Source: Escherichia coli
GTDB taxonomy: Bacteria > Pseudomonadota > Gammaproteobacteria > Enterobacterales > Enterobacteriaceae
NCBI RefSeq assembly: GCF_030013595.1
Contig: NZ_CP122768.1
Length of the DNA: 64,000 nucleotides
Reading direction: 5' to 3' (one strand)
Every line of letters begins with the position of its first letter. Position 1 is the stretch's first letter. The notes under the pieces were generated by a model. The model saw only the letters and a program-made list of their open reading frames with translations. It made no database searches and was not told the origin of the DNA. Shown here piece by piece: positions 27,521-51,652 of this stretch. The position numbers were made by a program, and so were the translations under genes.

Positions 27521-28342
27521 TTATTTTTGCGACAGTTGATCCAGCCTGTCGCGAAAACCGGTAACAGAAATGGCCCGGTTATCGGCGCGCCAGCGATCTT
27601 TCGCGGCAGGAGCCGAACTTTGCACCCCAATTAATTGCCAGCCGTTATCGGTATGCAACATCAGAGGCGAACCGCTGTCACCTGGCAAGGTATCGCACTG
27701 ATGCGACATCACCGACGTTTGCGCCCAGCCAGTCACTTCACAGTTTTGATGACTGTACAACGTATCGAGATGATCTTCAGGGTATCCCGCCTGAGTCACT
27801 TTACGACCTGCTGCTTTTAATGCGGCGGTAAGCGCGGCTTTATCTCCCTCAAATAACGGCAACGGTGTAATGCCAGAAGGGGGATTACGTAGCACAATCA
27901 AACCGAAGTCCCACGGCGCAGCTGCGGGAGGAACAATCCAACCATCCCCATCTGCTTTTAACCGCTTTCCCAGTGTCGGGTCAACGCGGCCTTCTATGTC
28001 GTGGATCTCATAGAGCCAAAGACCTTTATTTGACACAAAACGCAGCGCCACCGCTTTATCGGCTTTACCCTTTGGCGGCGTCAATAAACAGTGTCCTGCC
28101 GTTAATGCCAGATTGGGTGCGATCAGCGTCGCCGTACATAAATTGCCGCTGGCCGTTTCCAGTTGGCCAACCGCATCCCACGGTGATTGGGTCGTGTCAT
28201 TCACTGGCACACGATCATCATGACCAAAAAACAGGGTGCTGACCTCATCGTTTGCCGATTTGGCAACGTCTGGTTTATCTGCAAACACAAAAGCAGACGT
28301 CAAACTAATTGCACCCAACACTACAGCAATGGTTGTACGCAT
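27521..28342 (-). CDS. ydgD: secreted trypsin-like serine peptidase (S1 family)
   Basis: 273 aa with signal peptide, TAGHC and GDSGSP catalytic motifs. Confidence 0.8.
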
Positions 28343-37300: not shown

Positions 37301-39727
37301 TTAAACCTTTTCGATCTGGACAAGATTGCTGTGCGACGGGTTTCCCTTTGCCAGCGGTGAAGGGCGGTGAGAGGTCAGAATATTGATACTGCCGCCGTGA
37401 TCGACCCGGTCACCAAACATATCCGCTTTAAGCCACGCACCTTGCCCGATGGCGGTAACGCCAGGCAGAATACGCGGAGTCACTTTTGCGGCAATCAGCA
37501 TTTCTCCATTATTGTTAAATACCCGCACGGTATCGCCATGACGGATACCGCGTGCCTGAGCATCAATAGGGTTGATCCACACCTCTTGTGGGCAGGCCTG
37601 CTGTAACACATCAATATTGCCGTAGCTGGAGTGGGTACGCGCTTTGTAGTGGAAGCCCGTTAACTGCAGTGGATAGGTTTTCCGCAGGGGATCGTCCCAG
37701 CCATCAAAACCTGGGGTATACGCAGGAAGGGGATGAATAATTTCATCTTTTTTCAATTCCCAGGTATCCGCAATCGTCGCCAGTCGTTCAGAATAAATTT
37801 CGATTTTCCCCGAAGGTGTTTTCAACGGGTTTGCCTGTGGATCTTCACGGAATGCGCGGAAAGCGACGTAGTGTTCTTCCGGGCATTTTTTCTTAAAGAT
37901 CCCGGTCGTTTTCATCTCCTCGTAGTCGGGCATCTCAGGGTTACGTTCCTTCGTTTTCGCATGGAGATATTTGATCCATTCATGCTGACTGCGACCTTCA
38001 GTAAAGGTTTGATAAACGTCTGGTCCTAAGCGTTTGGCAACTTCACTCAGCATCCAGTAGATGGGTTTGCGTTCAAATTTTGCTGAGGTTGCGGGTTGGG
38101 CGAGGATCACATAGCCCATATTCCCGGCAGATTCGTGAGAGATAAGGTCTTCTTGCTCTGTTGGCATCAGGTCGGGCAACAGGATATCGCAATACTTAGC
38201 CGAGGCAGTCATGAAGTGGTCAATGCCAACAATCATCTCGCACTTGCTGTCATCCTGAAGCACCTCATGGGTGTGATTGATGTCGCCATGTTGATTGATC
38301 AATGTGTTACTGGCGTAGCACCATAAAAACTTGATGGGGACATCCAGTTTTTCTTTTCCACGAACACCATCACGGGTCGCGGTCATTTCCGTACCGTGGT
38401 CGATGGCATCTGTCCATGTAAAGACGGAAATCTGCGTTTTAACAGGATTCTCAAGCATCGGGAACCATTCTACCCCCAGATCCCAGCTACCTTCGCGTAC
38501 ACCTGAGTTGCCGCCGTTTATGCCGACGTTACCGGTGAGAACGGAAAGCATGGCAATAGCGCGGGACGTTTGTTCGCCGTTGGAGTGTCGTTGTGGCCCC
38601 CAACCCTGACAAATATAAGCAGGTTTTGCTGAACCGATCTCTCGTGCCAACTGGATAATTTTTTCTGCCGGGATGCTGGTGATTTTTGCTGCCCATTCCG
38701 GCGTTTTAGCTATGCCGTCAGGCCCTTCGCCCAGAATATAGGCTTTATAATGCGCGTTACGTGGTGCGTTGGCGGGCAGCGTTTTTTCATCGTAACCAAC
38801 ACAATATTTGTCGAGAAATGGCTGATCGACCATGTTTTCAGTAATCAGTACCCAGGCAATCGCACAGGCCAGTGCGCCATCGGTGCCTGGGCGAATTGGC
38901 AGCCATTCATCTTCACGCCCGGCAGCAGTGTCGTTATAACGTGGATCGATGACGATCATGCGTGCGTTTGAACGTTCTCGGGCTTGCTCGACGTAGTAAG
39001 TGACACCACCGCCGCTCATCCGGGTTTCTGCCGGGTTATTTCCGAACATAACGACCAGTTTCGTATTGGCTATATCATCCGGGCTGTTGCCATCATTGGC
39101 ACCGAACATATAACTCATTGCGGCACTGATTTGAGCGGTACTGTAGCTGCCATAGCGACTGAGAAAACCACCGCAAGAGTTCATCAGACGGTACGGGACG
39201 TTCGAGTTGGTGATGTTTCCGCCATCTACGCCTGTTCCGTACAGGACATGTACAGCCTCATTGCCGTAATCTTTAAGGATCCGCCGAAGATTATCACTGA
39301 TGGTATCCAGGGCTTCATCCCAACTTATCCGTTCAAATTTACCTTCACCGCGCTTGCCGACGCGCTTCATGGGATATTTCAACCTGTCAGGATGATTCAT
39401 CCGTCGGCGGATAGAGCGCCCGCGTAAACATGCCCGAACCTGATGATTACCGTAGACGTCGTCACCTGTCGTATCAGACTCCACCCAGTACACGGTGTCA
39501 TCTTTCACATGCAAACGTAACAGACAGCGGCTCCCGCAGTTAACGGTGCAGGAACTCCAGACCGCTTTCTCTTCTACCGGTGTCTCTGCCGCTCGGACCA
39601 TTTGGGAAAATGGCAGAGTGAAAGCACTGCTTGCCAGCGCAAGACTGCCAAGTGCGGAGGTTTTCATCAGACTTCTACGGCTGATTTCAGCCTTCATGAG
39701 CGCCTCTGTGGTATGGATTTTCATCAT
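37301..39727 (-). CDS. ynfF: molybdopterin oxidoreductase catalytic subunit (DmsA paralogue), Tat-exported
   Basis: 808 aa, twin-arginine signal (SRRSLMK), Cys motif CTVNCGSRC. Confidence 0.9.
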   Translation of the reverse strand: MMKIHTTEALMKAEISRRSLMKTSALGSLALASSAFTLPFSQMVRAAETPVEEKAVWSSCTVNCGSRCLLRLHVKDDTVYWVESDTTGDDVYGNHQVRACLRGRSIRRRMNHPDRLKYPMKRVGKRGEGKFERISWDEALDTISDNLRRILKDYGNEAVHVLYGTGVDGGNITNSNVPYRLMNSCGGFLSRYGSYSTAQISAAMSYMFGANDGNSPDDIANTKLVVMFGNNPAETRMSGGGVTYYVEQARERSNARMIVIDPRYNDTAAGREDEWLPIRPGTDGALACAIAWVLITENMVDQPFLDKYCVGYDEKTLPANAPRNAHYKAYILGEGPDGIAKTPEWAAKITSIPAEKIIQLAREIGSAKPAYICQGWGPQRHSNGEQTSRAIAMLSVLTGNVGINGGNSGVREGSWDLGVEWFPMLENPVKTQISVFTWTDAIDHGTEMTATRDGVRGKEKLDVPIKFLWCYASNTLINQHGDINHTHEVLQDDSKCEMIVGIDHFMTASAKYCDILLPDLMPTEQEDLISHESAGNMGYVILAQPATSAKFERKPIYWMLSEVAKRLGPDVYQTFTEGRSQHEWIKYLHAKTKERNPEMPDYEEMKTTGIFKKKCPEEHYVAFRAFREDPQANPLKTPSGKIEIYSERLATIADTWELKKDEIIHPLPAYTPGFDGWDDPLRKTYPLQLTGFHYKARTHSSYGNIDVLQQACPQEVWINPIDAQARGIRHGDTVRVFNNNGEMLIAAKVTPRILPGVTAIGQGAWLKADMFGDRVDHGGSINILTSHRPSPLAKGNPSHSNLVQIEKV

Positions 39728-39784: not shown

Positions 39785-40811
39785 TTATATTTTTTCGATC
39801 TCGACCAGATTAGTGTGCTGCGGGTTTCCCTTCGCCAGTGGTGAAGGGCGCAGAGTGGTTAGCGTATTCACACAGCCGCCATGGTCGATTTTATCGCCAG
39901 ACATATTGGCCTCGTGCCAGGCTCCCTGGCCCATAGCGCTAACCCCAGGGAGAATGCGTGGTGTTACTTTGGCTGGTAGCCGAACTTCGCCACGATGGTT
40001 AAACACCCGCACCATATCGCCGTTGGCAATCCCACGTTTCTGTGCATCTATAGGGTTGATCCACACCTCCTGACGGCAGGCTTCCTTCAGGACATCAATA
40101 TTGCCGTAGGTCGAGTGGGTACGGGATTTGTAATGGAAACCAAACAGTTGCAGTGGGAAGGTTCTACGTTCAGGGGAGTCCCAGCCTTCAAAGGTTGAGG
40201 CATAAACTGGCAGTGGGCTTATCACTTCATCTTTTTCCAGTTCCCAGGTACGGGCAATTTCCGCCAGCTTGCTGGAATAAATTTCAATCTTACCGGAAGG
40301 CGTTTTAAGTGGATTTGCCTCGGGGTCGTCACGAAATGCTTTGTAGGCGACAAAATGACCATTGGGATCTTTACGCTTATAGATACCCATTTTTTTCAGT
40401 TCGTCGTAAGACGGTAACGCCGGATCTTTGGCAAGCATTTTGGCGTACAGATGTTGTAACCATTGTTCCTGCGTGCGACCTTCTGTGAACTTTTGATAGA
40501 CGTCAGGTCCAAGACGTTTCGCGACTTCACTCAGGATCCAGTAAATCGGTTTGCGTTCGAATTTTTCGCTGGTGACTGGCTGAAGGAAAATGAGATATCC
40601 CATGTTACCTGCGTAGTCGTTAGGAATAATATCTTCCTGCTCAACGGTCATCAGGTCTGGCAGCAGAATGTCGGCATATTTTGCCGATGAGGTCATAAAG
40701 TTTTCGATGACCACAATCATTTCGCATTTCGATTCGTCCTGCAGAATTTCATGCGTTTTGTTGATGTCAGAATGCTGATTAACCAGGGTATTTCCCGCGT
40801 AGTTCCAGATG
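39785..40811 (-). pseudogene. ynfE: ynfE 3' fragment (codons from about IWNYAGNTL to the C-terminus), separated from its 5' part by a 9.4-kb insertion
   Basis: Translation aligns residue-by-residue with the C-terminal half of YnfF; homology begins exactly at the 11-bp repeat 40801-40811; the track ORF 39785..40951 is a chimera with insert-derived N-terminus. Confidence 0.85.
40801..40811 (+). repeat. left copy of 11-bp direct repeat AGTTCCAGATG (att core or target-site duplication)
   Basis: Identical 11-mer at 50242-50252; joining the flanks restores the in-frame ynfE sequence ...VPIKFIWNYAGNTL... Confidence 0.8.
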
Positions 40812-40876
40812 GACTCCACTGTCAGACGGATGGACGGACTTGAAGTAGTTGACTCAACGCTACTTAAGGTCCTGAT

Positions 40877-42485
40877 ATGACTGACATTAACTATGATAAT
40901 ACTGTATATCCATCCAGCTCTTTCTCTGGGTCTCCCTATCTGTATGGGCAAGTCTACACCTCAAGTCCTGACACAAGGCTGACACAAATCAATCTACTCA
41001 GCGTAGCTAAGCCTCAGTTAGTCCGTAGAGCCAATGGTCGATATACTATCCGCTTCAGACTCAAGGGACAGACCACACCGTTTCTTTCAGTATCGACCCG
41101 AAGCACAGACAGGAGAGTAGCCACAATGCGTCAGAGAGAGCTTGCAGCCACAGCTAAGGCCTTCATGTTGGATAGGCCTGAAGTCTCACTACAGGAGCTT
41201 ACAGAGCATCTCCGGTCTATGGCTGAGCAGTTCCTGACAGACGCTAGTGACGATTACTGGAATGGACTTGAGGTCGCTACTTTGGTGGACGAGAAGTCCA
41301 ACCTGAAGGAGCTAGCCGCTACGCAAGCCTTGAGTCTGGACCAGCAGAAGGGCATAAGGTTAGCGCTTGAAGTCCTGACCGCAGCACAGCAGAGGGTAGA
41401 TACTGGTGATACGTCCAGTCTAATCAAGCTGATTGGTGGTGGCGTAAGCCAGCTTACTGATGGAGATGACAATAACCTTACTAATAACTCAACTATATGC
41501 GACTCTACGTTGATTCTGAGGAACGAGCAGGGGGTCAGCCCGCAAGTATTCACGAGAGAGCGCCAACCATCTGTAGTTTTTTCAAGCCTAGTGTCCTCAC
41601 TGCTGGCTGAGAAGGTCCAGACCCTGAAGTCCTCCAGCTACAAGGACCTGTCGTCCTCACTGAATACCGTCTCTCGGTTTCTGCCTGAAGATATGGACCT
41701 GATGTCCCGCTCTGAGTGGCTGGCAGTGAGGGACGCTATGCTGGCTGCTGAGGTGAGACCATCGACAATCAACAAGCTGCTGACCAAAGCGAAGATGTGT
41801 CTCGATTATGGCCTGATGAATGGGCAACTTGAGGGCCGCAACCCTATTGAACGGATGAAGCTGACCAAGGATACCGACTCCAAGCGCAGAGCGTTCACAG
41901 ACGAGGAGCTGGAGAGACTTCTGGTCCGTGTTGAGGCTGAGTATCAGTTCACACGACACACGGCTCACACGACCTCTGAGGCCCGTAGATGGGCGTCTCT
42001 GGTGTCTGTGGTCACTGGCGCGAGGTCTGCTGAGGTCTGCCACCTGACTAAACGTGACGTTGTAACCTTGGACAATGGACTGGTCTGTATCGACATCAAT
42101 GAAGATGGGGACGGGAAGTCTGTGAAGAACAAACATTCAGTCCGACTTGTGCCGTTAACCGATGGGGCCTGTGGTTTCAGCCTGAAGTCCTTCCTCAAAT
42201 GGGTAGACACTCAGCCTGCTGATGGTCCCCTCTTTGGTATGACTCCGAGTGCCTACTCTAGTTGGTTTAACTCTAGGGTCCTGACTGAGGCCCTAGGAGA
42301 CGCTGAGAACGTTTCTCCACAGTCTGAGACATTGGCTGGCGACCCGAATGAAAGAGCGTGGAGTCAATCTGGTGGACGCTCAAGGCATCTTAGGTCACAG
42401 CAGTCAGTCCATTACGTATGACCTGTACGGGAAAGGACACGCTGTTGGTAGGCTGGCTGAGGTGCTGAAGACAGCTTTACTTTAA
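40877..42485 (+). pseudogene. tyrosine recombinase/integrase with apparent 1-nt frameshift upstream of box II
   Basis: ORF 40877-42421 contains box I (VVTGARSAEVCHLTKRDV) but ends out of frame; the HSLRHWLATRM...LGHSSQSITYDLYGKGH catalytic His-Arg-His-Tyr region is in another frame (42297-42485). True start is probably downstream of 40877, since arm-type repeats lie at 40968-40987. Confidence 0.6.
40968..40987 (+). repeat. two 11-bp-spaced direct repeats CTGACACAA (putative integrase arm-type sites, left arm)
   Basis: CTGACACAAGG and CTGACACAAAT in tandem; same motif recurs three times at the right end. Confidence 0.5.
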
Positions 42486-42562
42486 GTAGGAAGACCCAAG
42501 GTGGAGACCATATACGGCTTGATGGTTGAGACCTTGGGTCACTGAAGTCTGACTGAAGTTAG

Positions 42563-42603
42563 GGAGGGTGATAATAATCATAATCCCTCCTGACTATAGG
42601 CCC
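42563..42603 (+). promoter_or_regulatory. hairpin (GGAGGG-16 nt-CCCTCC) followed by T7-class promoter-like motif CTGACTATAGGCCC
   Basis: Direct reading of sequence; TATAGG core shared with motifs at 42801-43474. Confidence 0.35.
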
Positions 42604-42644
42604 ACTGGTTCGCCTTCGGCTGTCCGACTCTAAGTCTGTCTGTG

Positions 42645-42776
42645 GTCTTATTTAAACTGGTTCCCTAACTCAGGTCCTCCAACTTGGTGTCTTATTTAAA
42701 CTGGTTCCCTAACTCAGGTCCTCCAACTTGGTGTCTTATTTAAACTGGTTCCCTAACTCAGGCCCCTCCAAATTTC
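42645..42776 (+). repeat. three tandem copies of a 44-bp repeat (GTCTTATTTAAACTGGTTCCCTAACTCAGGTCCTCCAACTTGGT)
   Basis: Units start at 42645, 42689 and 42733; first two identical, third diverges in its last 14 nt. Confidence 0.85.
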
Positions 42777-42800
42777 GTTGTCTGTCAGCGACTTAAATAT

Positions 42801-42855
42801 CCCCTCACCTTAGAAGAGTTTAGGGTTCAGACCCTTAACTATCACCTTAGGAGAG
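42801..42855 (+). promoter_or_regulatory. pair of single-subunit phage RNAP promoter-like motifs (CCCCTCACCTTAGAAGAG and AACTATCACCTTAGGAGAG)
   Basis: Resemble SP6/T3-class promoters (…CACTATAGAAGAG / …CCCTCACTAAAGGGAGA); located just upstream of the 166-aa ORF. Confidence 0.35.
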
Positions 42856-42901
42856 ACGGGCCGTCCTCCACCCAATCAAAACCTTAAGAGGAGGACCATA
42901 C

Positions 42902-43402
42902 ATGGCTATTAAAATTCAGTGCTACACCGAGTCCGACAATGCGGCTTTCTTCGGTGACGATTCCGACCTCCAGCACCAGCTACCAGCACCGACATATGAC
43001 GAACCTAAGGCCCGCACAGGTAAGCCTCCTGTGGTCATCGACAACCGGGCTGTCCGTGCGTGGCTGATTGAGACTGGGTGTCTCTCCTATACGCAGCTTG
43101 TTGAGGCGTACCCGTGGGCTGACGATGTGTTCACAGGACTCTCACGGGCTACCAGTGGCGCTGTCGGTGCTGGACTCCCGGTATCTAAGGCGTACCTGTT
43201 CTCTGCCTTATATGGCACCAACGACATCTTCTCCCGTAACACAGCCAAATCCTACGCTGACATCACTGGGCGTTCACCGTCTCCTCGCTACCTGCGCCAC
43301 GTCAATAGCGTGCTTCAGGCTACGGCTGTGAATCTGGCTAAGGTTCTGAAGGACCGAGGGGATTTCACATGGTGGGATTACAACGATCAGTGCCTGTCCT
43401 GA
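42902..43402 (+). CDS. hypothetical protein (166 aa)
   Basis: ORF with GAGGAGG Shine-Dalgarno 8 nt upstream; no recognisable motifs. Confidence 0.55.
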   Translation: MAIKIQCYTESDNAAFFGDDSDLQHQLPAPTYDEPKARTGKPPVVIDNRAVRAWLIETGCLSYTQLVEAYPWADDVFTGLSRATSGAVGAGLPVSKAYLFSALYGTNDIFSRNTAKSYADITGRSPSPRYLRHVNSVLQATAVNLAKVLKDRGDFTWWDYNDQCLS

Positions 43403-43426
43403 GAGCCGCGCCAGCTCTGGGCTGGA

Positions 43427-43474
43427 ATACCCCCTCACTATAGGGACACCCCCTAAACTATCACTATAGGGGGG
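43427..43474 (+). promoter_or_regulatory. pair of T3/T7-class promoter-like motifs (CCCCCTCACTATAGGGACA and AACTATCACTATAGGGGGGA)
   Basis: First motif matches the T3 promoter core CCCTCACTAAAGGGA at 14 of 15 positions and the T7 core TCACTATAGGGA exactly; no RNAP gene in the element. Confidence 0.45.
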
Positions 43475-43620
43475 ACCAACCTTGCCTCTGCTTCTGATGC
43501 GTCAGAACACGCGAGGTCCTCCCGACATTAAGTATTCTCCTAAGTAATCAAGGCCCGTGACCGCCTCTGACAGACCTCCTGTATCGACCTCCAGCTCGTT
43601 AGCGTTCTTTAGTCGTCTCG

Positions 43621-43628
43621 GTTAGTAG
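43621..43628 (+). repeat. 8-bp target-site duplication GTTAGTAG (left) of IS66-family copy 1
   Basis: Identical octamer at 46329-46336 immediately outside the IS ends. Confidence 0.8.
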
Positions 43629-43712
43629 GTAACCGGCTCATTTAAACCGTCTGGTCTGTTTCCTCCGGCTCTACAAAAATAATGTCCATCATTTTTTAAT
43701 GGACACTATCGT

Positions 43713-44360
43713 ATGAAACACCGGACCTGGATCACTGAAGCTTTACGTCTTCACTTTGAAGAACATTTACCCCGGGTTGTGGCCGGGCGTCGCCTGGGTG
43801 TACCAAAATCAACAGTTTGTAGTATGTTCGTGCGCTTTCGGAGAGCTGGCCTTTCGTGGCCTTTGCCCGCAGGCATGTCGGAGCAGGAACTTGATGCCTG
43901 CCTTTACGGACAATTTTCCACGGTACCAGTCGTACGTCCTGAAAGCACCGTTATATCCGAAGCCCCCGTGGTAAAAAAACGTCCCCGGCGGCCCAACTTC
44001 CCTTATGAGTTTAAAATCGCCTTAGTGGAGCAGTCACTGCAGCCCGGAGCCTGTGTGGCGCAGATCGCCCGGGAAAACGGAATCAACGATAACCTGCTCT
44101 TCAACTGGCGCCATCAATACCGGAAAGGTGGCCTGCTGCCTTCCGGAAAAAATATGCCGGCACTGCTTCCCGTGACGTTAACGCCGGAGCCGGATAATAA
44201 AATCCCGGCCCCCGCACAGGAACCAGAGCAGATAAATACACCGTCCGACAGTCTGTGTTGTGAGCTGGTTCTGCCGGCCGGAACTCTCAGGCTTAAAGGT
44301 AAACTGACGCCGGCGTTATTACAGACACTTATCCGCGAAATAAAAGGGAGCAGCCACTGA
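43713..44360 (+). CDS. IS66-family accessory protein (orf1, HTH)
   Basis: 215 aa first ORF of the IS. Confidence 0.8.
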   Translation: MKHRTWITEALRLHFEEHLPRVVAGRRLGVPKSTVCSMFVRFRRAGLSWPLPAGMSEQELDACLYGQFSTVPVVRPESTVISEAPVVKKRPRRPNFPYEFKIALVEQSLQPGACVAQIARENGINDNLLFNWRHQYRKGGLLPSGKNMPALLPVTLTPEPDNKIPAPAQEPEQINTPSDSLCCELVLPAGTLRLKGKLTPALLQTLIREIKGSSH

Positions 44361-44707
44361 TGATATCTCTCCCTGCAGGTTCGCGTATCTGGCTGGTTGC
44401 AGGTATCACCGATATGCGAAATGGCTTTAACGGCCTGGCATCAAAAGTTCAGAACGTCCTGAAGGATGACCCGTTCTCCGGACACCTGTTCATCTTCCGC
44501 GGACGCCGGGGTGACCAGATAAAAGTGTTGTGGGCTGACAGTGACGGACTGTGCCTCTTCACCAAACGCCTGGAGCGGGGCCGCTTCGTCTGGCCAGTCA
44601 CCCGTGACGGCAAGGTGCACCTTACTCCGGCTCAGTTATCCATGCTTCTTGAAGGTATCAACTGGAAGCACCCGAAACGAACGGAACGCGCTGGAATCCG
44701 CATATAA
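44360..44707 (+). CDS. IS66-family Orf2 (TnpB-like)
   Basis: 115 aa MISLPAGSRIWLVAGITDMRNGFNGLA..., typical IS66 orf2; start overlaps orf1 stop. Confidence 0.85.
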   Translation: MISLPAGSRIWLVAGITDMRNGFNGLASKVQNVLKDDPFSGHLFIFRGRRGDQIKVLWADSDGLCLFTKRLERGRFVWPVTRDGKVHLTPAQLSMLLEGINWKHPKRTERAGIRI

Positions 44708-44726
44708 CCCGTTGTAAAGTGAGGAT

Positions 44727-46298
44727 ATGGACACCTCACTTGCTCATGAGAACGCCCGCCTGCGGGCACTGTTGCAGACGCAACAGGACACCATCCGCCA
44801 GATGGCTGAATACAACCGCCTGCTCTCACAGCGGGTGGCGGCTTATGCTTCCGAAATCAACCGGCTGAAGGCGCTGGTTGCGAAACTGCAACGTATGCAG
44901 TTCGGTAAAAGCTCAGAAAAACTTCGTGCAAAAACCGAACGGCAGATACAGGAAGCACAGGAGCGAATCAGCGCACTTCAGGAAGAAATGGCGGAAACGC
45001 TGGGTGAGCAATATGACCCGGTACTGCCATCCGCCCTGCGCCAGTCTTCAGCCCGTAAACCGTTACCGGCCTCACTTCCCCGTGAAACCCGGGTTATCCG
45101 GCCGGAAGAGGAATGCTGTCCTGCCTGTGGTGGTGAACTCAGTTCTCTGGGATGTGATGTGTCAGAGCAACTGGAGCTTATCAGCAGCGCCTTTAAGGTT
45201 ATCGAAACACAACGTCCGAAACAGGCCTGTTGCCGGTGCGACCATATCGTACAGGCACCAGTACCTTCAAAACCCATTGCACGCAGTTATGCCGGAGCGG
45301 GGCTTCTGGCCCATGTTGTCACCGGGAAATATGCAGACCATCTGCCGTTATACCGCCAGTCAGAAATATACCGTCGTCAGGGAGTGGAGCTGAGCCGTGC
45401 CACACTGGGGCGCTGGACAGGTGCTGTTGCTGAACTGCTGGAGCCGCTGTATGACGTCCTGCGCCAGTATGTGCTGATGCCCGGTAAAGTCCATGCTGAT
45501 GATATCCCCGTCCCGGTCCAGGAGCCGGGCAGCGGTAAAACCCGGACAGCCCGGCTGTGGGTCTACGTCCGTGATGACCGTAACGCCGGTTCACAGATGC
45601 CCCCGGCGGTCTGGTTCGCGTACAGTCCGGACCGGAAAGGTATCCATCCACAAAATCACCTGGCCGGTTACAGCGGTGTGCTTCAGGCCGATGCTTACGG
45701 TGGTTACCGGGCGTTATACGAATCCGGCAGAATAACGGAAGCCGCGTGTATGGCTCATGCCCGGAGAAAAATCCACGATGTGCATGCAAGAGCGCCCACC
45801 TACATCACCACGGAAGCCCTGCAGCGTATCGGTGAACTGTATGCCATCGAGGCAGAGGTCCGGGGCTGTTCAGCAGAACAGCGTCTGGCGGCAAGAAAAG
45901 CCAGAGCCGCGCCACTGATGCAGTCACTGTATGACTGGATACAGCAACAGATGAAAACACTGTCGCGTCACTCAGATACGGCAAAAGCGTTCGCATACCT
46001 GCTGAAACAGTGGGATGCACTGAACGTGTACTGCAGTAATGGCTGGGTGGAAATCGACAACAACATCGCAGAGAACGCCTTACGGGGAGTGGCCGTAGGC
46101 CGGAAAAACTGGATGTTCGCGGGTTCCGACAGCGGTGGTGAACATGCGGCGGTGTTGTACTCGCTGATCGGCACATGCCGTCTGAACAATGTGGAGCCAG
46201 AAAAGTGGCTGCGTTACGTCATTGAACATATCCAGGACTGGCCGGCAAACCGGGTACGCGATCTGTTGCCCTGGAAAGTTGATCTGAGCTCTCAGTAA
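44727..46298 (+). CDS. IS66-family transposase (orf3)
   Basis: 523 aa with N-terminal leucine-zipper-like region, CxxC...CxxC zinc finger and DDE region. Confidence 0.85.
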
Positions 46299-46328
46299 AT
46301 ATCAATACGGTTCTGACGAGTCGCTTAC

Positions 46329-46336
46329 GTTAGTAG
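46329..46336 (+). repeat. 8-bp target-site duplication GTTAGTAG (right) of IS66-family copy 1
   Basis: Matches 43621-43628. Confidence 0.8.
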
Positions 46337-46582
46337 CTCGTCTACTCACTACATTGGCTTAAGTCTATCACCGCTCACCATCTGGAGTCCTTACAGCTCG
46401 TCCTGACATGCGGTCTCACCTTATATGCACATGGAGAACATGGCCACTCCAGACCAACACTAATCAACATTAACCCTATTCACTTTCGTTAAGCATTTTT
46501 TGGTGGGTCCGTTTGGATGCATTGAATAGGTGCGGACTCCACGTGGAGACAGAAAGTGCTTTACTAAAGGAGCATCCTTTAT

Positions 46583-46972
46583 ATGACTATTAAATCCATC
46601 GTTATCAACGGTAAGACCATCCTGTCTACACCTAACGCCATCAATGAGGGTGTCTGGTTCGACATGCTTGAGGTCCATCAAGCTGCTGGCTTGCCTGCTA
46701 ACAAGACGTTCTCACAGTGGCGCAGCCGACAGTCTCGTGCATTAGAAGAGGCTGGAGAGGTGTCGTTTGACAGTGTACAGAAGACCCTGTGTGGCAGCTT
46801 TGTGGCAGTGCTGGCCTACCTTATGTGGGCGGACCTTACTCTCTGGCTGGCGGTGGTTCGTTACGTTGCGTCTGAGACTATCGGCGTCCTGCCTGACCGC
46901 TTCAAGTCTATCGACGGTGATAACCCCGAGTTAGAAATGTCAGAGGATAACAGCGAGTGGGAGGACTTCTAA
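46583..46972 (+). CDS. KilA-N domain protein (129 aa)
   Basis: N-terminal pattern (INGKTI...NEGVWFDMLEV...GLPANKTFSQW) and hydrophobic WxxxLxxxL segment typical of KilA-N/APSES DNA-binding domains. Confidence 0.5.
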   Translation: MTIKSIVINGKTILSTPNAINEGVWFDMLEVHQAAGLPANKTFSQWRSRQSRALEEAGEVSFDSVQKTLCGSFVAVLAYLMWADLTLWLAVVRYVASETIGVLPDRFKSIDGDNPELEMSEDNSEWEDF

Positions 46973-46973
46973 G

Positions 46974-47714
46974 ATGACCATGAGCCAGCTTGAAGCATTA
47001 CCTATCGTCATCGAGGGTCATTCATTCATCTGCAACGACCAGCGCATGTGGAACCTGAACGAGATTCACCGAGTGTTAGGTCTTCCAGCAAGCAAGATGC
47101 CGTCTGAGTGGAATAACAAGATTCGCACACAACTTGACCGCTCCGGAAATTTCCGGACCGTGAATGGTGACGGCGGTGGTACATGGGCGACCGAGGCTGG
47201 GACCGTGGCTTATGCTATGTGGGTCTCTACAGATTTCTACCTGATGGTCATCAATGCTTTCATCTTTATGCGTAACGACGCAATCGTCCGAGAGCGTGTA
47301 GCGGTCAAACAGGCTGACGAGGCTAACGCTAACCTCTCCATCGCAGCACCTAAGGCAGACATCTTTGACGGTCGTCTGACCAATGGTGGCTCTGTTCCGT
47401 GGAACTGGGCGTGTAAATCTTTGGGTCTTGCCCCGATGAAACTGAAAGAGGGCTTGAAGCGCTCCGGTAAGTTCGTCCAGAAGTGGAACCCTGACAGTTA
47501 CGCCGACGAGCTTCGACCTCAGGAGAAGGCGTTCAGTATTGGACTATTCGTCACTAAGTCAGTCATGGGTAAAGACACATGGCAGGTGACAGCTAAAGGC
47601 TACGCATGGATGCAGGGGAACGCCCAGAAGTGGAGAGAGCTAATAGCTGATGGTGACCGCTTAAAGGCTGCTGAGCGTCGAGCACAGAAGCGTCTTAACC
47701 GTGGAGGTAAGTAG
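46974..47714 (+). CDS. KilA-N domain protein with C-terminal extension (246 aa)
   Basis: Paralogous to upstream ORF (IEGHSFICNDQRMWNLNEIHRVLGLPASKMPSEW... GTWATEAGTVAYAMWVSTDFYLMV). Confidence 0.5.
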   Translation: MTMSQLEALPIVIEGHSFICNDQRMWNLNEIHRVLGLPASKMPSEWNNKIRTQLDRSGNFRTVNGDGGGTWATEAGTVAYAMWVSTDFYLMVINAFIFMRNDAIVRERVAVKQADEANANLSIAAPKADIFDGRLTNGGSVPWNWACKSLGLAPMKLKEGLKRSGKFVQKWNPDSYADELRPQEKAFSIGLFVTKSVMGKDTWQVTAKGYAWMQGNAQKWRELIADGDRLKAAERRAQKRLNRGGK

Positions 47715-47716
47715 TC

Positions 47717-47941
47717 ATGGCTATGATTGACCCTCGTACACCTATCGGCAAAGCGACCCTTCGTTACCGTGGTCTGCCTACACGTCATCTGCTGTCCCTG
47801 CTGAGACTTGGAGTCGAAGACCCCGAACGCCCGTACTACAGTCGAGACGAGCTAATAGCTATGTTGGTGGACCGTGATTTAGACAATCAGTTACGCCGAG
47901 CCTTTGCGAAGTCTAGCGCAGCTAGGGAACTGGAGTCCTGA
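47717..47941 (+). CDS. hypothetical protein (74 aa)
   Basis: ORF tightly coupled to upstream gene (3-nt gap). Confidence 0.4.
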   Translation: MAMIDPRTPIGKATLRYRGLPTRHLLSLLRLGVEDPERPYYSRDELIAMLVDRDLDNQLRRAFAKSSAARELES

Positions 47942-48146
47942 ACCTTATGGGGCAGAAAAACCGCCGCATAAACCTATCGTCTGCTGACCGAAGTTTCGAC
48001 GCATTGAGCCAGACGGAAAAGTTTTCCTGCTGGTAAACCACCTTAATTTAAACACCTTTTGAGAATGACCGATGCGGGGAGACCCGTAGGCATAACTGTG
48101 TCTGCGATACCGATAGTTCTCACCTTCTCAATAGGAGTACTACCTT

Positions 48147-48638
48147 ATGTTATTCAACAACAACGACTGGAAACTATCAGTCACCGACATCAATCCCTAT
48201 GAAAATACTGTGAGTCTGGACGGTCAGTCCTATCCGCTGTCTCTGGCGATTAAGACCCTGATTCCGGGCTACCTGTCAGGCTTACCGTCCACCAGCCGCG
48301 AGGCGATGGAGTTACTGGAAGCTCTGGCTGAAGCTGGCGTGTCCATTGGCAACTTCTTCAGTAATGACCTGATGACCGCCTATGGTCGCCGCCAGCAGAA
48401 CAAGCGAGCCGAAGCTGAGCGTATTGCTAAAGAGCAGCGCATTCAGGCTGAGCGTATGCGTGAAGAGAACATGACTGATGCAGAGTGGCAGAAAGAGCTA
48501 CAGCGCCGTGAACAGGTCAAAGCTGAACGCCGGACCTATGGTGAGCACCTCCGCAGTGCTACCCATTCCGCTGGGCGCTCCCGTGCTTCTATGGTCGCTG
48601 ACATTGAGTCCACGGACAACTGGATGGACAGCCTCTAA
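48147..48638 (+). CDS. hypothetical coiled-coil protein (163 aa)
   Basis: C-terminal half highly charged and heptad-like (RRQQNKRAEAERIAKEQRIQAERMREENMTDAEWQKELQRREQVKAERR). Confidence 0.5.
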   Translation: MLFNNNDWKLSVTDINPYENTVSLDGQSYPLSLAIKTLIPGYLSGLPSTSREAMELLEALAEAGVSIGNFFSNDLMTAYGRRQQNKRAEAERIAKEQRIQAERMREENMTDAEWQKELQRREQVKAERRTYGEHLRSATHSAGRSRASMVADIESTDNWMDSL

Positions 48639-48704
48639 GACACAGACACACAAGTGGTCCTGACCTGATGTCGGGACCCACAGTATCCAAACTAATTTAG
48701 GAGA

Positions 48705-49700
48705 TTGATTATTATGACGATTAAAGACGCTTTCCAGTTCGGCATTGAGCCAGTACGTATCAGCGACACCGACAACATTCAGATTAACGAAGGTTTGCCA
48801 ACTAACGCAGACCCGCAGGTCTATGCCCTCCAGTTAGCTAAGACGGTTAAGGCTATGCTGAACGGTGTACTTAAAGACGCTCAAGAGAACATCCCGTTCC
48901 CTGTAGAAGTCCTGCCGACCCGCAATAGCCTGCCTACTCCAATCATTGCTCACACTCTGGCTGATCGCTCTGTGGTCGTTCCTGTCCGTGGTGGTAAGCG
49001 ACCTGAAGTCGTGACCGTTCCGTCTGGACAAGAAATCGTGGTCGAACCAATCGAGCAGGCTATTCTCATCTCTGAGCAGACCAAGCTCTGGGACGCCAAG
49101 TCATCCACCGGATTCACTCAGGGCACACTTCAGCAGGACGCTATGAACATCTGTGAGAATGTGGTCCGTACCATCAACGCTCGCATGGTCGACGTTCTGG
49201 AGTCCTCCAAACTGTTGAAGACCGTAGAGCTGCCAGTCCTGACTGGAAGCCTGACCACTAAGGCAGACGCTATCATGGACGCTCTGTTTGAGAACACCGA
49301 GTCCTCTTTCGGCTCTGAAGTGTCTGATTACGGCATCATCGCCCATGAGTCCCAACTGAAAGCGCTGTCCCGTCTGGCAGCTAAACAGGGCTTCTCTGGT
49401 GGAGACGCTATCGTGGATATGCTGGGTACCGACATCGCCTATTACAACGGTGAAGACAAGGGTGTATTCATGCTGGCTAAACGCTTCACGGCCCTGAGCT
49501 TCGGCTGCTTCCGTCACGACGGTGAGAATATTACGGTCGTCCTTTCACGTGATGGCGACTCTCAGTCCCACGACTTGGAAATCCTCGGTAAAGTGTTCGT
49601 TGTCGCTGAAGCTGCTACGACCATCAAGATGGGCACTGGCTCAGCTACTGCCGTCCTGCCTGTAGTCAAACGCCTGAAGTTCACCAAGACCGAAGCGTAA
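48705..49700 (+). CDS. hypothetical protein (331 aa), possible structural/morphogenetic protein
   Basis: Largest non-integrase ORF of the element; follows the coiled-coil ORF; AGGAG Shine-Dalgarno upstream; no motif I can assign. Confidence 0.5.
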   Translation: MIIMTIKDAFQFGIEPVRISDTDNIQINEGLPTNADPQVYALQLAKTVKAMLNGVLKDAQENIPFPVEVLPTRNSLPTPIIAHTLADRSVVVPVRGGKRPEVVTVPSGQEIVVEPIEQAILISEQTKLWDAKSSTGFTQGTLQQDAMNICENVVRTINARMVDVLESSKLLKTVELPVLTGSLTTKADAIMDALFENTESSFGSEVSDYGIIAHESQLKALSRLAAKQGFSGGDAIVDMLGTDIAYYNGEDKGVFMLAKRFTALSFGCFRHDGENITVVLSRDGDSQSHDLEILGKVFVVAEAATTIKMGTGSATAVLPVVKRLKFTKTEA

Positions 49701-49844
49701 GACCAATGGGTAAGAGGTAAGTCTGGACTGAATATCAGCAGGACTTCAGGTGGTGGCCTGTCACTGTGATTAACTAACTACGGTCTGGACCAATGGTCTG
49801 GGCCTTATTACTGGTATGGTAGTATACAGGCGAAGGAGGACCCA

Positions 49845-50000
49845 ATGTCTATGACTTCCGCAGACCTAAGGTCCCTCCTGACTCTGGTCTATAAACTCGT
49901 GTTCCTCTCTGTGGGTCTCTACATGGTTCTCTCTGGTCGACTCGGTGTGGATGTGTTCGACACTCTGTCTAAGGCTGTGGGTGGACTTCTAGGTCCTTAG
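49845..50000 (+). CDS. small single-pass membrane protein (51 aa)
   Basis: ATG with AGGAGGA Shine-Dalgarno; MSMTSADLRSLLTLVYKLVFLSVGLYMVLSGRLGVDVFDTLSKAVGGLLGP; below ORF-track cutoff. Confidence 0.4.
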   Translation: MSMTSADLRSLLTLVYKLVFLSVGLYMVLSGRLGVDVFDTLSKAVGGLLGP

Positions 50001-50153
50001 GTTTGGACTCACAGTGGGACCGATGATTTCTGACAGAAAAATGTGAATGACCATCTAATACATTAAGCCAGCAGACTTCCCCCCATAGTCCCGCCTCAAG
50101 TCCAGACCGAGGCCACCGGGGGTCCTGACCAGCCGTCTAGACATCCCGTCTAA

Positions 50154-50186
50154 TGACACAAGTCTGGCACAAAGCCTGACACAAAG
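50154..50186 (+). repeat. three 11-bp-spaced direct repeats TGACACAAG / TGGCACAAAG / TGACACAAAG (putative arm-type sites, right arm)
   Basis: Same motif and orientation as 40968-40987 at the opposite end of the element. Confidence 0.5.
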
Positions 50187-50241
50187 TCCTTGACTCAATG
50201 CAGGACCTCAGGCCTACTAAGGGTCCGCTTCAAGTCCTTGA

Positions 50242-50252
50242 AGTTCCAGATG
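50242..50252 (+). repeat. right copy of 11-bp direct repeat AGTTCCAGATG
   Basis: Identical to 40801-40811. Confidence 0.8.
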
Positions 50253-51652
50253 AACTTAATGGGCACATCCAGTTTATCTTTGCCGCGGACGCCGTCGCGG
50301 ATTGCCGTCATTTGCGGGCCATGATCGATAGCATCCGTCCAGCTGAAGCAGGAGATTGACGTTTTGACCGGATTATCCAGCACCGGTAGGCGTTCTATGG
50401 TAATGGTATAGGTCGATTCACGCGCGCCACTATTCCCGCCGCTGATGCCGACATTGCCCGTCAAAATAGGCAACATAGCAATAGCGCGTGCGGTCAGCTC
50501 ACCGTTTGCCTGGCGTTGCGGCCCCCAGCCCTGGCAGATATAAGCGGGTTTTGCTGTGCCAATTTCACGCGCCAGTTTGATGATACGGTCCACCGGGATA
50601 CCGGTAATTTGCGAAGCCCACTGCGGCGTTTTCGCTGTTTTATCGTCACCTTCACCAAGAATATAGGCTTTATAGTGACCATTTTTTGGTGCATCTGCGG
50701 GTAAGGTTTTTTCGTCATAGCCGACGCAGTATTTATCAAGAAAAGGTTGATCAACGAGATTTTCGTTAATCAATACCCAGGCAATACCCGCAACCAGCGC
50801 GGCATCGGTGCCCGGGCGAATAGGAAGCCATTCGTCTTCACGACCGGCAGCCGTATCGGTATATCGCGGATCGATAACAATCATTTTTGCGTTCGATTTC
50901 TCGCGCGCTTTTTCAAGAAGATAAGTGATGCCACCACCGCTCATGCGGGTTTCTGCCGGGTTGTTACCAAACATCACGACCAGCTTGCTGTTTTCAATAT
51001 CCGTGGTGCTGTTGCCATCATTACTGCCGTAGGTGTAGGGCATGGCACAGGAAATTTGCGCGGTGCTGTAGGAGCCATACTGGTTGAGTGAGCCGCCGTA
51101 GCAGTTCATCAGGCGTTTGACCGCCGAGGCGGATGGCGAAGAGCGGGTCATATTGCCGCCAACAATCCCCGAAGAGTACTGAATATATACAGCCTCATTG
51201 TCATATTGTTCGACGGTTTTTTTCAGGCTACTGGCGATAGTATCCAGGGCTTCATCCCAGCTAATCCGTTCGAATTTGCCTTCGCCGCGTTTGCCCACGC
51301 GTTTCATTGGGTAATTCAAGCGGTCGGGATGATTAATACGCCGACGGATGGAGCGACCGCGCAAACAGGCGCGTACTTGATGATTGCCATACTCATCGCT
51401 GCCGGTGTTGTCAGTTTCCACCCAGGTCACTTCATTATCTTTAACATGCAGACGAAGTGCACAGCGGCTACCACAGTTGACGGAACAGGCACCCCAGACC
51501 ACTTTCTCGCTGGCCTGTTGTACTGCTGCCGCTGCACTGCGCAGGGTGAACGGTAAAGAAAAACCGCCTGCAGCCAGCGCCAGAGAACCTATCGCGGTAG
51601 ATTTAACGAGTGTTCTGCGGCTGATGCCCACCATTTGTTCATTTTTGGACAT
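50242..51652 (-). pseudogene. ynfE: ynfE 5' fragment (Tat signal and N-terminal about 465 codons)
   Basis: MSKNEQMVGISRRTLVKSTAIGSLALAAGG twin-arginine leader; homology to YnfF ends at ...LDVPIKFIWN where the insert begins. Confidence 0.85.

Follow-up and report, generated by a model that had tools for sequence, protein, structure and literature searches.

In the 64,000-nt stretch of Escherichia coli DNA analysed here (contig NZ_CP122768.1; hereafter the window), the gene ynfE is split by an integrase-borne element of 9.4 kb, which carries a nested insertion sequence (IS) of the IS66 family and measures ~6.7 kb, its ancestral size, without it. The element lies between two copies of an 11-bp sequence, AGTTCCAGATG, and its eight or nine open reading frames (ORFs) are all on the + strand; they include an integrase gene at the left end, a variable regulatory module and a gene for a predicted capsid protein, accompanied by two pairs of sites that resemble phage promoters and, near the right end, by a homologue of a phage concatemer junction. 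The integration through an attachment (att) core inside ynfE, with inactivation of the gene, is almost certainly real and has already been published. The phage-type promoters, the packaging-site mimic and the capsid gene, which had gone unseen in the original prediction made from the sequence of the window, are what constitutes the nature of the element, and they point to a satellite of virulent T7-like coliphages.

An integrase-borne element at an 11-bp site in ynfE

The 11-mer occurs exactly twice in the window, at 40801–40811 and 50242–50252 and both times on the + strand, against 0.02 copies expected by shuffling and with two or more copies in 0 of 100 shuffles. The bases adjoining the two copies differ (left t/a, right g/a), so that the repeat is exactly 11 bp in the window copy. 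Deletion of 40812–50252 in silico yielded an uninterrupted 808-codon ORF on the − strand that corresponds to YnfE, and the reconstructed 600-bp empty site matched an annotated intact ynfE (H31) with 100% identity. Among 5,426 complete E. coli genomes the empty site was contiguous in 5,116, and the 11-mer was present once, at this same position, in intact ynfE; the refuting case named in the original prediction, an intact reference gene devoid of the 11-mer, was therefore not encountered. Thus the two identical 11-mers and the frame restored by removing the insert together with one repeat, both of which had been claimed originally, were borne out. In the occupied state the 5′ part of ynfE runs into 17 foreign codons of the element and then a stop (ORF 50195–51652), and no substitute 3′ end is supplied by the element, in agreement with the earlier claim that the gene is destroyed; in relatives the 3′ fragment is annotated as a pseudogene, a partial ‘molybdopterin dinucleotide binding domain’. 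The length comparison of the 11 bp to transposon target duplications, however, is inapplicable, because the 11-mer exists once in the empty sites and is therefore an att core and not a duplication.

Next to the empty sites, the occupied ones were counted in the same 5,426 genomes. The left junction (attL; 100 bp of ynfE plus 100 bp of the element) was found in 148, the right junction (attR) in 151 and the integrase gene in 149, and among the 155 integrase matches only six were second places within a genome. Since the DNA identity of the integrase spans 89–98% among the E. coli copies, these copies are not one clone. A survey of the same element elsewhere, which the original prediction had suggested, indicated that the same 11-mer bounds all 16 relatives that were read end to end (among them L001–L007, L013, L015, L020–L022, L025 and L027); the flanks of L020 and L022 are unlike E. 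coli ynfE, yet the 11-mer boundaries are the same. In some copies (L003/L004, L007), attL and the empty site are identical over 15 or 19 bp, as expected if the site on the free element (attP) has a longer target-like stretch with the crossover inside the shared 11-mer. A distant relative, L010, is flanked by 16-bp repeats, TAGTTCAGATTGAACT, and its flanks translate as QFNLNYAVK, as compared with KFIWNYAGN in YnfE, by which it probably lies in a related gene of another species, at the homologous position. The paralogue ynfF is adjacent and intact and has 70% protein identity to ynfE; because it differs at 5 of the 11 core positions, ynfE alone is targeted. Related integrases at a multitude of unrelated sites were not seen. 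Judged from these shared boundaries, the 11-mer of ynfE is a dedicated att site and not an accident, and of the two options left by the original prediction, the att core within ynfE stands on the boundaries and the junction counts, whereas a secondary-site integration is refuted by the same data.

The site itself has been described before. In its passages on ynfE, a survey made with TIGER lists this gene as an integrase target that is inactivated by a tight integrase clade, and names the elements Eco892.7.ynfE and Sfl13.8.ynfE, in which the Molybdopterin domain is disrupted (Mageeney et al., 2020; PMC7192596). Both features, disruption of the gene without restoration and repeated events within a tight integrase clade, were found for the ynfE element studied here. 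A separate prophage, with Ant/BRO, TraR and DUF551 genes, was observed in ynfG of E. coli 1604D011 (L006:1-5480) and PS2Canimalfeces12 (L007:1-5471), where, ~3.5 kb away from the ynfE site, ynfG is reduced to a truncated ‘4Fe-4S binding protein’. Mobile elements seem to land repeatedly in the ynfEFGH operon.

Three contigs of element length (L010, L022 and L025; 6.6–6.8 kb, from Logan and metagenome contigs) consist of the element with 20–44 bp of host flank on each side. They were considered as circles and rejected, being integrated copies with host flank and no terminal overlap; such contigs are the pattern expected of occupied and empty ynfE alleles mixed in one sample and are not proof of excision. 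Likewise, an apparent attP match obtained by pattern search turned out to be attR, since the chromosome continues AACT.

Phage-type sequences and genes of the element

Motifs of the type CACTATAGG surfaced in a repeat analysis of the element. The promoter site as it stands in the relatives, and not in the window, served as a 32-nt query, which matched the promoters of K1F, EcoDS1, CR44b, Dev2, SH3 and many other Kayfunavirus phages over 25 of 25 nt, at ~8 places per 39-kb genome; the matched sites are annotated ‘promoter’ in EcoDS1 and CR44b, and the window copy itself matches over 19 of 19 nt. A position weight matrix was then derived from 11 annotated EcoDS1 promoters, of which one is annotated off register by a base and the other ten score 29–33 bits. 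Outside the element's sites (Table 1), no site above 15 bits on this matrix was present in the rest of the window, while every scored relative carried a site of 24–34 bits (at least 31 in the E. coli copies scored) and a second site, all on the coding strand. The 42833 site has the CACCTTAGG core in common with one annotated EcoDS1 promoter (11107, CCTAAACTATCACCTTAGGGATG). Two promoter flavours stand in tandem at each position, with …CCCCTCAC… preceding …AACTATCAC…, and the former matches the promoters of the Kayfunavirus group typified by vB_EcoP-Ro103C3lw (TTAAACCCTCACTATAGG); the site of this type at 43426–43448 scores below the 30.7–36 bits of true sites. A dual promoter specificity, directed at two Kayfunavirus polymerases or helper lineages, is therefore plausible but less certain. 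In relatives of the PM4-5 type, the K1F/EcoDS1 flavour alone was observed.

Two further stretches of the element resemble Kayfunavirus DNA. The 32-nt hairpin region downstream of the integrase gene, identical to phage phiYIO1-1, gave an E value of 3e-5 against 2.3 Gb of phage records; it matches EcoDS1 38634–38657 at 22 of 24 nt, and its conservation extends over all E. coli relatives and L010. Near the right end, 50003–50114 is collinear with Ro103C3lw 39149–39260, where the terminal repeat starts at 39199, and with EcoDS1 39030–39150 (alignment A3), which places the equivalent of the phage left end at ~50054 (TCTAATAC...). The local score of this junction homologue was 34, compared with 17.6 ± 2.3 and a maximum of 27 for shuffles. 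The weak BLAST matches of the window stretch were mostly to T7-like genomes of ~38–41 kb, near the genome ends where the coordinates allow judgement. Supportively, the variant in L004 and L007 has 92–97% identity over 31–39 nt to EcoDS1 39041–39079, next to a terminal repeat that starts at 39075, and matches 219 phage records at one place each, which is the terminal-repeat boundary wherever the repeat is annotated. On these alignments, the junction homologue qualifies as a putative cis-acting packaging signal that matches the one of the helper phage. A GenBank record labelled ‘UNVERIFIED: Enterococcus phage IME_EF3, partial genome’ (PQ520054.1, L032; 7.8 kb) also spans a concatemer junction and is 78–98% identical, segment by segment, to EcoDS1 and Ro103C3lw; it was rejected as a packaged satellite and appears to be a mislabelled or contaminating fragment of a Kayfunavirus, which is a coliphage, and not an Enterococcus phage.

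The conserved 328-aa protein had no sequence match in Pfam, the PDB sequences, PHROGs, NCBIfam, PADLOC or, by tblastn, the GenBank phages. A first structure prediction based on 14 close homologues was too poor (predicted local distance difference test score, pLDDT, 46.7), and the BFVD search performed with it gave weak capsid hints, whereas a usable model was obtained on an alignment from an exhaustive hidden Markov model (HMM) search for distant relatives. According to this model, the protein is an HK97-fold capsid protein. Encapsulins were among its best structural matches; the gene lies in an integrase island together with phage promoters, a packaging mimic and gp7.3, and with no recognisable cargo enzyme. 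The gp7.3-like gene, a 3′ remnant in the window, is intact (79–80 aa) in L003, L005 and L010, where its product has 38% identity to EcoDS1 gp7.3 (E 3e-11) and matches phrog_1320, ‘host range and adsorption protein’ (E 1.6e-11).

Table 1. Features of the ynfE element and its flanks in the window
Feature	Coordinates	Strand	Basis
ynfE 3′ fragment, C-terminal ~340 codons, without a start owing to the insertion	39785–40811	−	ORF list; joined to 50253–51652 gives the 808-aa YnfE
attL core AGTTCCAGATG, ynfE codons ~467–470 (F-I-W-N-Y)	40801–40811	+	repeat; same boundary in all sampled relatives
Tyrosine integrase gene, starts 66 nt inside attL; original frame to ~42487	40877–42421	+	phrog_1 integrase, E 6e-24; Pfam Phage_integrase weak
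Two direct CTGACACAA(A/G) repeats by attL, candidate arm-type integrase sites	40968–40990	+	motif positions
32-nt hairpin region, in reverse orientation relative to the phiOR promoter/gene 19.5 interval of Kayfunavirus phiYIO1-1	42567–42598	+	32/32 identity
Three tandem 44-bp repeats, perfect or near-perfect, AT-rich TTATTTAAAC core, between integrase gene and first promoter pair	42645–42776	+	
First promoter-like pair: 42796–42818 (CCCCTCACCTTAGA type) and 42833–42855 (CCTTAACTATCACCTTAGGAGAG, 27.1 bits on the EcoDS1 matrix)	42796–42855	+	
166-aa ORF between the promoter pairs, no recognisable family	42902–43402	+	ORF and family searches
Second promoter-like pair	43426–43474	+	43426–43448 AATACCCCCTCACTATAGGGACA, Ro103C3lw/GW1-type, 25.4 bits; 43452–43474 CCTAAACTATCACTATAGGGGGG, K1F/EcoDS1-type, 29.4 bits
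IS66-family IS, ISCro1-like: tnpA 43713–44360, tnpB 44360–44707, transposase 44727–46298	43629–46327	+	
129-aa ORF, variable regulatory module	46583–46972	+	
KilA-N/anti-repressor-like DNA-binding protein, 246 aa	46974–47714	+	phrog_129, phrog_63; RefSeq name KilA-N
Conserved 74-aa protein (IDPRTPIGKATLRYRGLPTRHLL...), in all relatives read, no family match	47717–47941	+	
Conserved 163-aa protein, charged coiled-coil-like middle, directly upstream of capsid gene	48147–48638	+	alignment A5
HK97-fold major-capsid-like protein (predicted), 328 aa	48714–49700	+	
gp7.3-like gene, 3′ remnant, approximate	49712–49775	+	seen by eye
51-aa small hydrophobic ORF just upstream of the packaging-site mimic, conserved in most relatives, no family match	49845–50000	+	
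Concatemer-junction homologue, ~110 nt: last part of the unique right region, then the terminal repeat's initial ~60 nt	50003–50114	+	collinear alignments
Three TG(A/G)CACAA(A/G) repeats by attR, candidate arm-type integrase sites	50154–50186	+	tandem repeat finder, motif positions
attR core AGTTCCAGATG	50242–50252	+	repeat; right junction; relatives' boundaries
ynfE 5′ fragment, ~467 codons, 17 codons into the element, stop at 50195	50253–51652	−	ORF list, frame restoration

The core-to-core spacing of the att sites was 6,321–6,828 bp in 13 copies free of IS insertions. In the intact integrase of the relatives the R-K-H-R-H-Y catalytic set is complete (GARSAE...K...LHSLRHW...GHSS...TYDLY); carriers with an intact integrase include E. 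coli PM4-5 (CP096834), NCTC11023 (LS483297) and CREC-591 (CP024821). The set is disrupted in the window copy, which, when aligned with that of PM4-5, lacks 2 bp after ~42317, so that the reading frame is lost for the HxxR...Y half of the active site. The motif TGACACAA occurs on the + strand at 40969, 40980, 50154 and 50177 and elsewhere in the window just at 28031 (+) and 32642 (−), so placed that these repeats inside both ends are candidate arm-type integrase sites. The IS66 copy is bounded by an 8-bp target duplication, GTTAGTAG, at 43621–43628 and 46328–46335, and is a secondary insertion that is missing from almost all relatives. Because the integrase is frameshifted and the IS66 copy splits the main promoter pair from the downstream operon, the window copy is decaying and probably unable to excise on its own.

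Between these conserved parts, several positions vary. The 44-bp repeats are a candidate origin or binding array; at their position the PM4-5-type relatives carry a different sequence. The 166-aa ORF is replaced by an unrelated 122-aa ORF in other relatives, and the KilA-N slot holds a Rha/Ant-like protein or an AP2-HNH endonuclease in others. The latter was observed as a 363-aa AP2-domain HNH endonuclease (phrog_99, E 8e-16) in L004:11951-13042, L005:11840-12931 and L006:12128-13219; HNH homing endonucleases are abundant in T7-like phages, and this protein could act on helper DNA or in packaging. For the 74-aa protein, a role as excisionase or as a small-terminase-like protein is speculation only. 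The 163-aa protein was examined as a gp14 or gp9 homologue and neither was significant (Pfam T7_gp14 i-E 0.21; hhalign probability 3.5%). No replication, terminase, portal or tail proteins were recognised among the element proteins with PHROGs and NCBIfam, Rfam contained no RNA matching the element, and the scans of the element for sigma-70-like promoters and terminators were at or below chance.

The cargo was also found apart from the ynfE site. A Logan contig (ERR10768130; L009:15-6162) carries the same cargo, including a capsid protein with 92% identity, K1F-type promoters and the junction mimic, together with a different integrase and an extra DUF4145 gene, and has 16-bp repeats, CCCTTCGCCCGCTCCA, as its boundaries, at what resembles the 3′ end of a tRNA; its sequence suggests a modular exchange of the integration module. 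A distant island in GCA_052218625.1 (contig JBQPIK010000015.1; L017:5991-12504) has an integrase and genes of 254, 155 and 332 aa in the same layout. Its boundaries are 19-bp repeats, AATAATCAGGAGAAGATTA, spaced by 6,495 bp; it sits directly upstream of a gene of the ferritin family, and another T7-type promoter-like motif, TAAACCCCGACTATAGAGAG, occurs in it three times. Therefore, the ynfE specificity belongs to the integrase module, and the cargo is a portable unit.

A putative phage satellite and the competing explanations

Collectively, the element has integration functions and lacks a full set of virion or replication genes, the recognisable proteins being the integrase, the DNA-binding regulator, the HK97 protein and, in relatives, gp7.3. 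We consider it probable, from these sequence comparisons, that the element parasitises, as a satellite, virulent T7-like coliphages belonging to Kayfunavirus (K1F, EcoDS1 and Ro103C3lw types). With less assurance, and still on balance in favour, we propose that it represents a family of satellites of virulent T7-like phages not described before, which are minimal (~6.6 kb) and encode a capsid protein. Helper-polymerase promoters would serve them as infection sensor and switch, while replication would rely on the phage replisome and packaging on the junction copy; among complete E. coli genomes ~2.8% would carry the family, which would also occur in other Enterobacteriaceae, and the copies with two promoter specificities could answer more than one helper lineage.

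The following cycle is proposed. A tyrosine integrase would recombine the 11-bp core of attP with the identical 11-mer of ynfE and split the gene, a step for which the sequence evidence is strong. The element would then stay largely silent until infection by a Kayfunavirus brings in its single-subunit RNA polymerase, which would read the one-strand element genes downstream of the matching promoters, and the element would excise. T7 origins are promoter-linked, and the phage replisome may copy the excised element from such transcription-primed origins. At the junction copy of the element, the phage terminase would cut the concatemers so formed and package them, either into capsids with the element's own HK97-fold protein, perhaps as smaller heads, or as concatemers of about six units, since 6 × 6.3–6.8 kb gives 38–41 kb and the Kayfunavirus genomes, of 39–40.7 kb, are matched by six element units.

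Several observations weigh against this satellite interpretation. The predicted attP junction, CTTCAAGTCCTTGAAGTTCCAGATGGACTCCA, had no match in the IMG/VR viral contigs or the JGI metagenome contigs, an absence from assemblies that is weak evidence; the three IMG/VR matches of the element were all integrated copies, and the element DNA was not found in the GenBank phage records searched. The junction mimic of the window is more diverged than the L004/L007 variant. By hhalign, the 328-aa protein had no detectable similarity to any EcoDS1 protein, Kayfunavirus gp10 included, so that any fit with the portal and scaffold of the helper is conjectural; a weak point is also that the 163-aa protein is scaffold-like by position only. 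Neither an excisionase nor an initiator of replication could be recognised, the calculation with six units is so far numerology, and excision, replication and packaging are themselves proposed steps.

Part of these observations would suit a different explanation, in which the element is a non-mobile anti-phage defence island whose promoters sense infection and whose capsid-like protein and junction mimic poison the assembly or packaging of T7-like phages. A cargo driven by phage-specific promoters is what such an island would carry, a decoy-like junction and a divergent HK97 protein could disturb assembly, and no packaged or circular form was found in the IMG/VR and JGI metagenome contigs. However, no known defence family was matched in PADLOC, and the integrase and att sites, the narrow size range, the tail/adsorption homologue and the spread over species, integrases and att sites are traits of mobilisation and packaging. 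We therefore regard an immobile defence island as possible but unlikely; it may coexist with a satellite role, and since satellites commonly do both, it is partly a sub-case and not a rival.

Regulated gene integrity, proposed by Mageeney et al. (2020), would make the element a switch by which integration silences ynfE and excision restores it. It accords with the disruption of ynfE without restoration and with the many independent occupied and empty alleles, and ynfE is listed as a candidate in the survey's passages on this gene (PMC7192596). Nevertheless, the cargo appears phage-parasitic (polymerase promoters, packaging mimic and capsid gene) and suggests a phage, not the physiology of the host, as the inducer, with nothing related to selenate or anaerobic respiration; if a virulent phage induces the element, excision coincides with cell death and a restored ynfE would be useless; copies with dead integrases persist; and the intact, 70%-identical paralogue ynfF adjoins, so that loss of ynfE may be tolerated. 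On these grounds we judge a regulatory switch improbable. The published case may instead be reread, because ynfF adjoins, as that of a conserved, dispensable landing pad and not of a regulated gene.

A decayed remnant of a temperate T7-like prophage would account for the T7-type promoters, the terminal-repeat-like sequence, the HK97 capsid gene and the gp7.3 homologue, but it is very improbable, given that a gene set and order of ~6.6 kb is kept in ~150 E. coli genomes and beyond, unlike random decay, that the sequence of the capsid protein shows no relation to Kayfunavirus gp10, and that RNA polymerase, DNA polymerase, portal and terminase genes have left no trace. Finally, although a mid-gene, gene-destroying insertion is unusual for integrases (general knowledge; also the survey's passages on integrase targets, PMC7192596), accidental integration at a secondary site or a transposon with an 11-bp target duplication has scarcely any likelihood left, in view of the agreement of both junction counts with the number of integrase genomes, the rarity of second places, the identical boundaries of all relatives read through despite their integrase divergence and, in two, flanks other than E. 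coli ynfE, and, against the transposon, an invariant site with a pre-existing 11-mer and a sole DDE transposase that belongs to the nested IS66 with its own 8-bp duplication.

If the satellite interpretation is true, the use of the helper's own RNA polymerase as trigger would give satellites a new means of detecting the helper, and the engineered T7 plasmid-packaging system would have a counterpart in nature. T7-like phages are textbook virulent phages and are common in phage therapy cocktails; in ~1 of every 35 E. coli strains, the element could, in that case, be an overlooked reason why K1F-type therapeutic phages are resisted or transfer genes, and it would offer a compact chassis for phage-triggered gene expression.

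Comparison with known systems

In open-access papers and bioRxiv, which made up the whole literature scope, no description of a satellite of T7-like or K1F phages was found. The cf-PICIs, phage-inducible chromosomal islands that form capsids (e.g. EcCI2), are about twice as large, carry a complete set of genes for heads and packaging (portal, protease, adaptors and small terminase) and take only the tails from temperate helpers. In contrast, in the ynfE element of ~6.6 kb the major-head-like protein, with gp7.3 in some copies, is alone recognisable, and portal, protease, adaptors and small terminase have no PHROG or NCBIfam matches; its helper would be a virulent T7-like phage, and its expression is apparently dependent on the helper polymerase.

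[quoted passage not shown] The ynfE element differs from them in having no psu/sid/delta, alpA, primase-helicase or small-terminase homologues in PHROGs and NCBIfam, and in its helper family and putative activation logic. As to engineered systems, Chung and Hinkle reportedly found in 1990 that plasmids with a T7 origin/promoter and a concatemer junction were replicated and packaged by T7 as genome-length concatemers. These are the same minimal cis parts as those predicted for the ynfE element, engineered there and apparently natural here.

Closer in size are the PICMIs (phage-inducible chromosomal minimalist islands) of Vibrionaceae and the marine VEIMEs (virion-encapsidated integrative mobile elements), which are likewise very small (~6 kb), integrase-borne islands, and of which the PICMIs need virulent phages. 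For VEIMEs, the packaging of several units as a concatemer in a head of full size is documented in the passages of that paper on packaging (PMC9618062), and for PICMIs it is stated in the corresponding passages of PMC10803314; six units of the ynfE element, which match the helper genome length, would fit this mode. According to the latter paper's passages on gene content, the PICMIs integrate by fis and have three core excision/replication proteins and no capsid-remodelling genes (PMC10803314), and the VEIMEs described have no major capsid genes (PMC9618062). The ynfE element, on the other hand, lies inside ynfE, has a predicted capsid gene and helper-polymerase promoters, and has no recognisable replication gene, AlpA or primase.

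The nearest published elements are the ynfE elements of Mageeney et al. (2020), which, as the survey's passages on ynfE describe them, are integrase-borne, 7–8 kb long and found in E. coli and Shigella, and disrupt the same gene and Molybdopterin domain without restoring it, the window copy being 9.4 kb long with its nested IS66. Those passages catalogue the site and the integrase clade, whereas the cargo, the phage promoters, the packaging mimic and the capsid gene are not described there. Thus, what appears to be new here is the nature of the cargo, the virulent T7-like helper and the activation logic.

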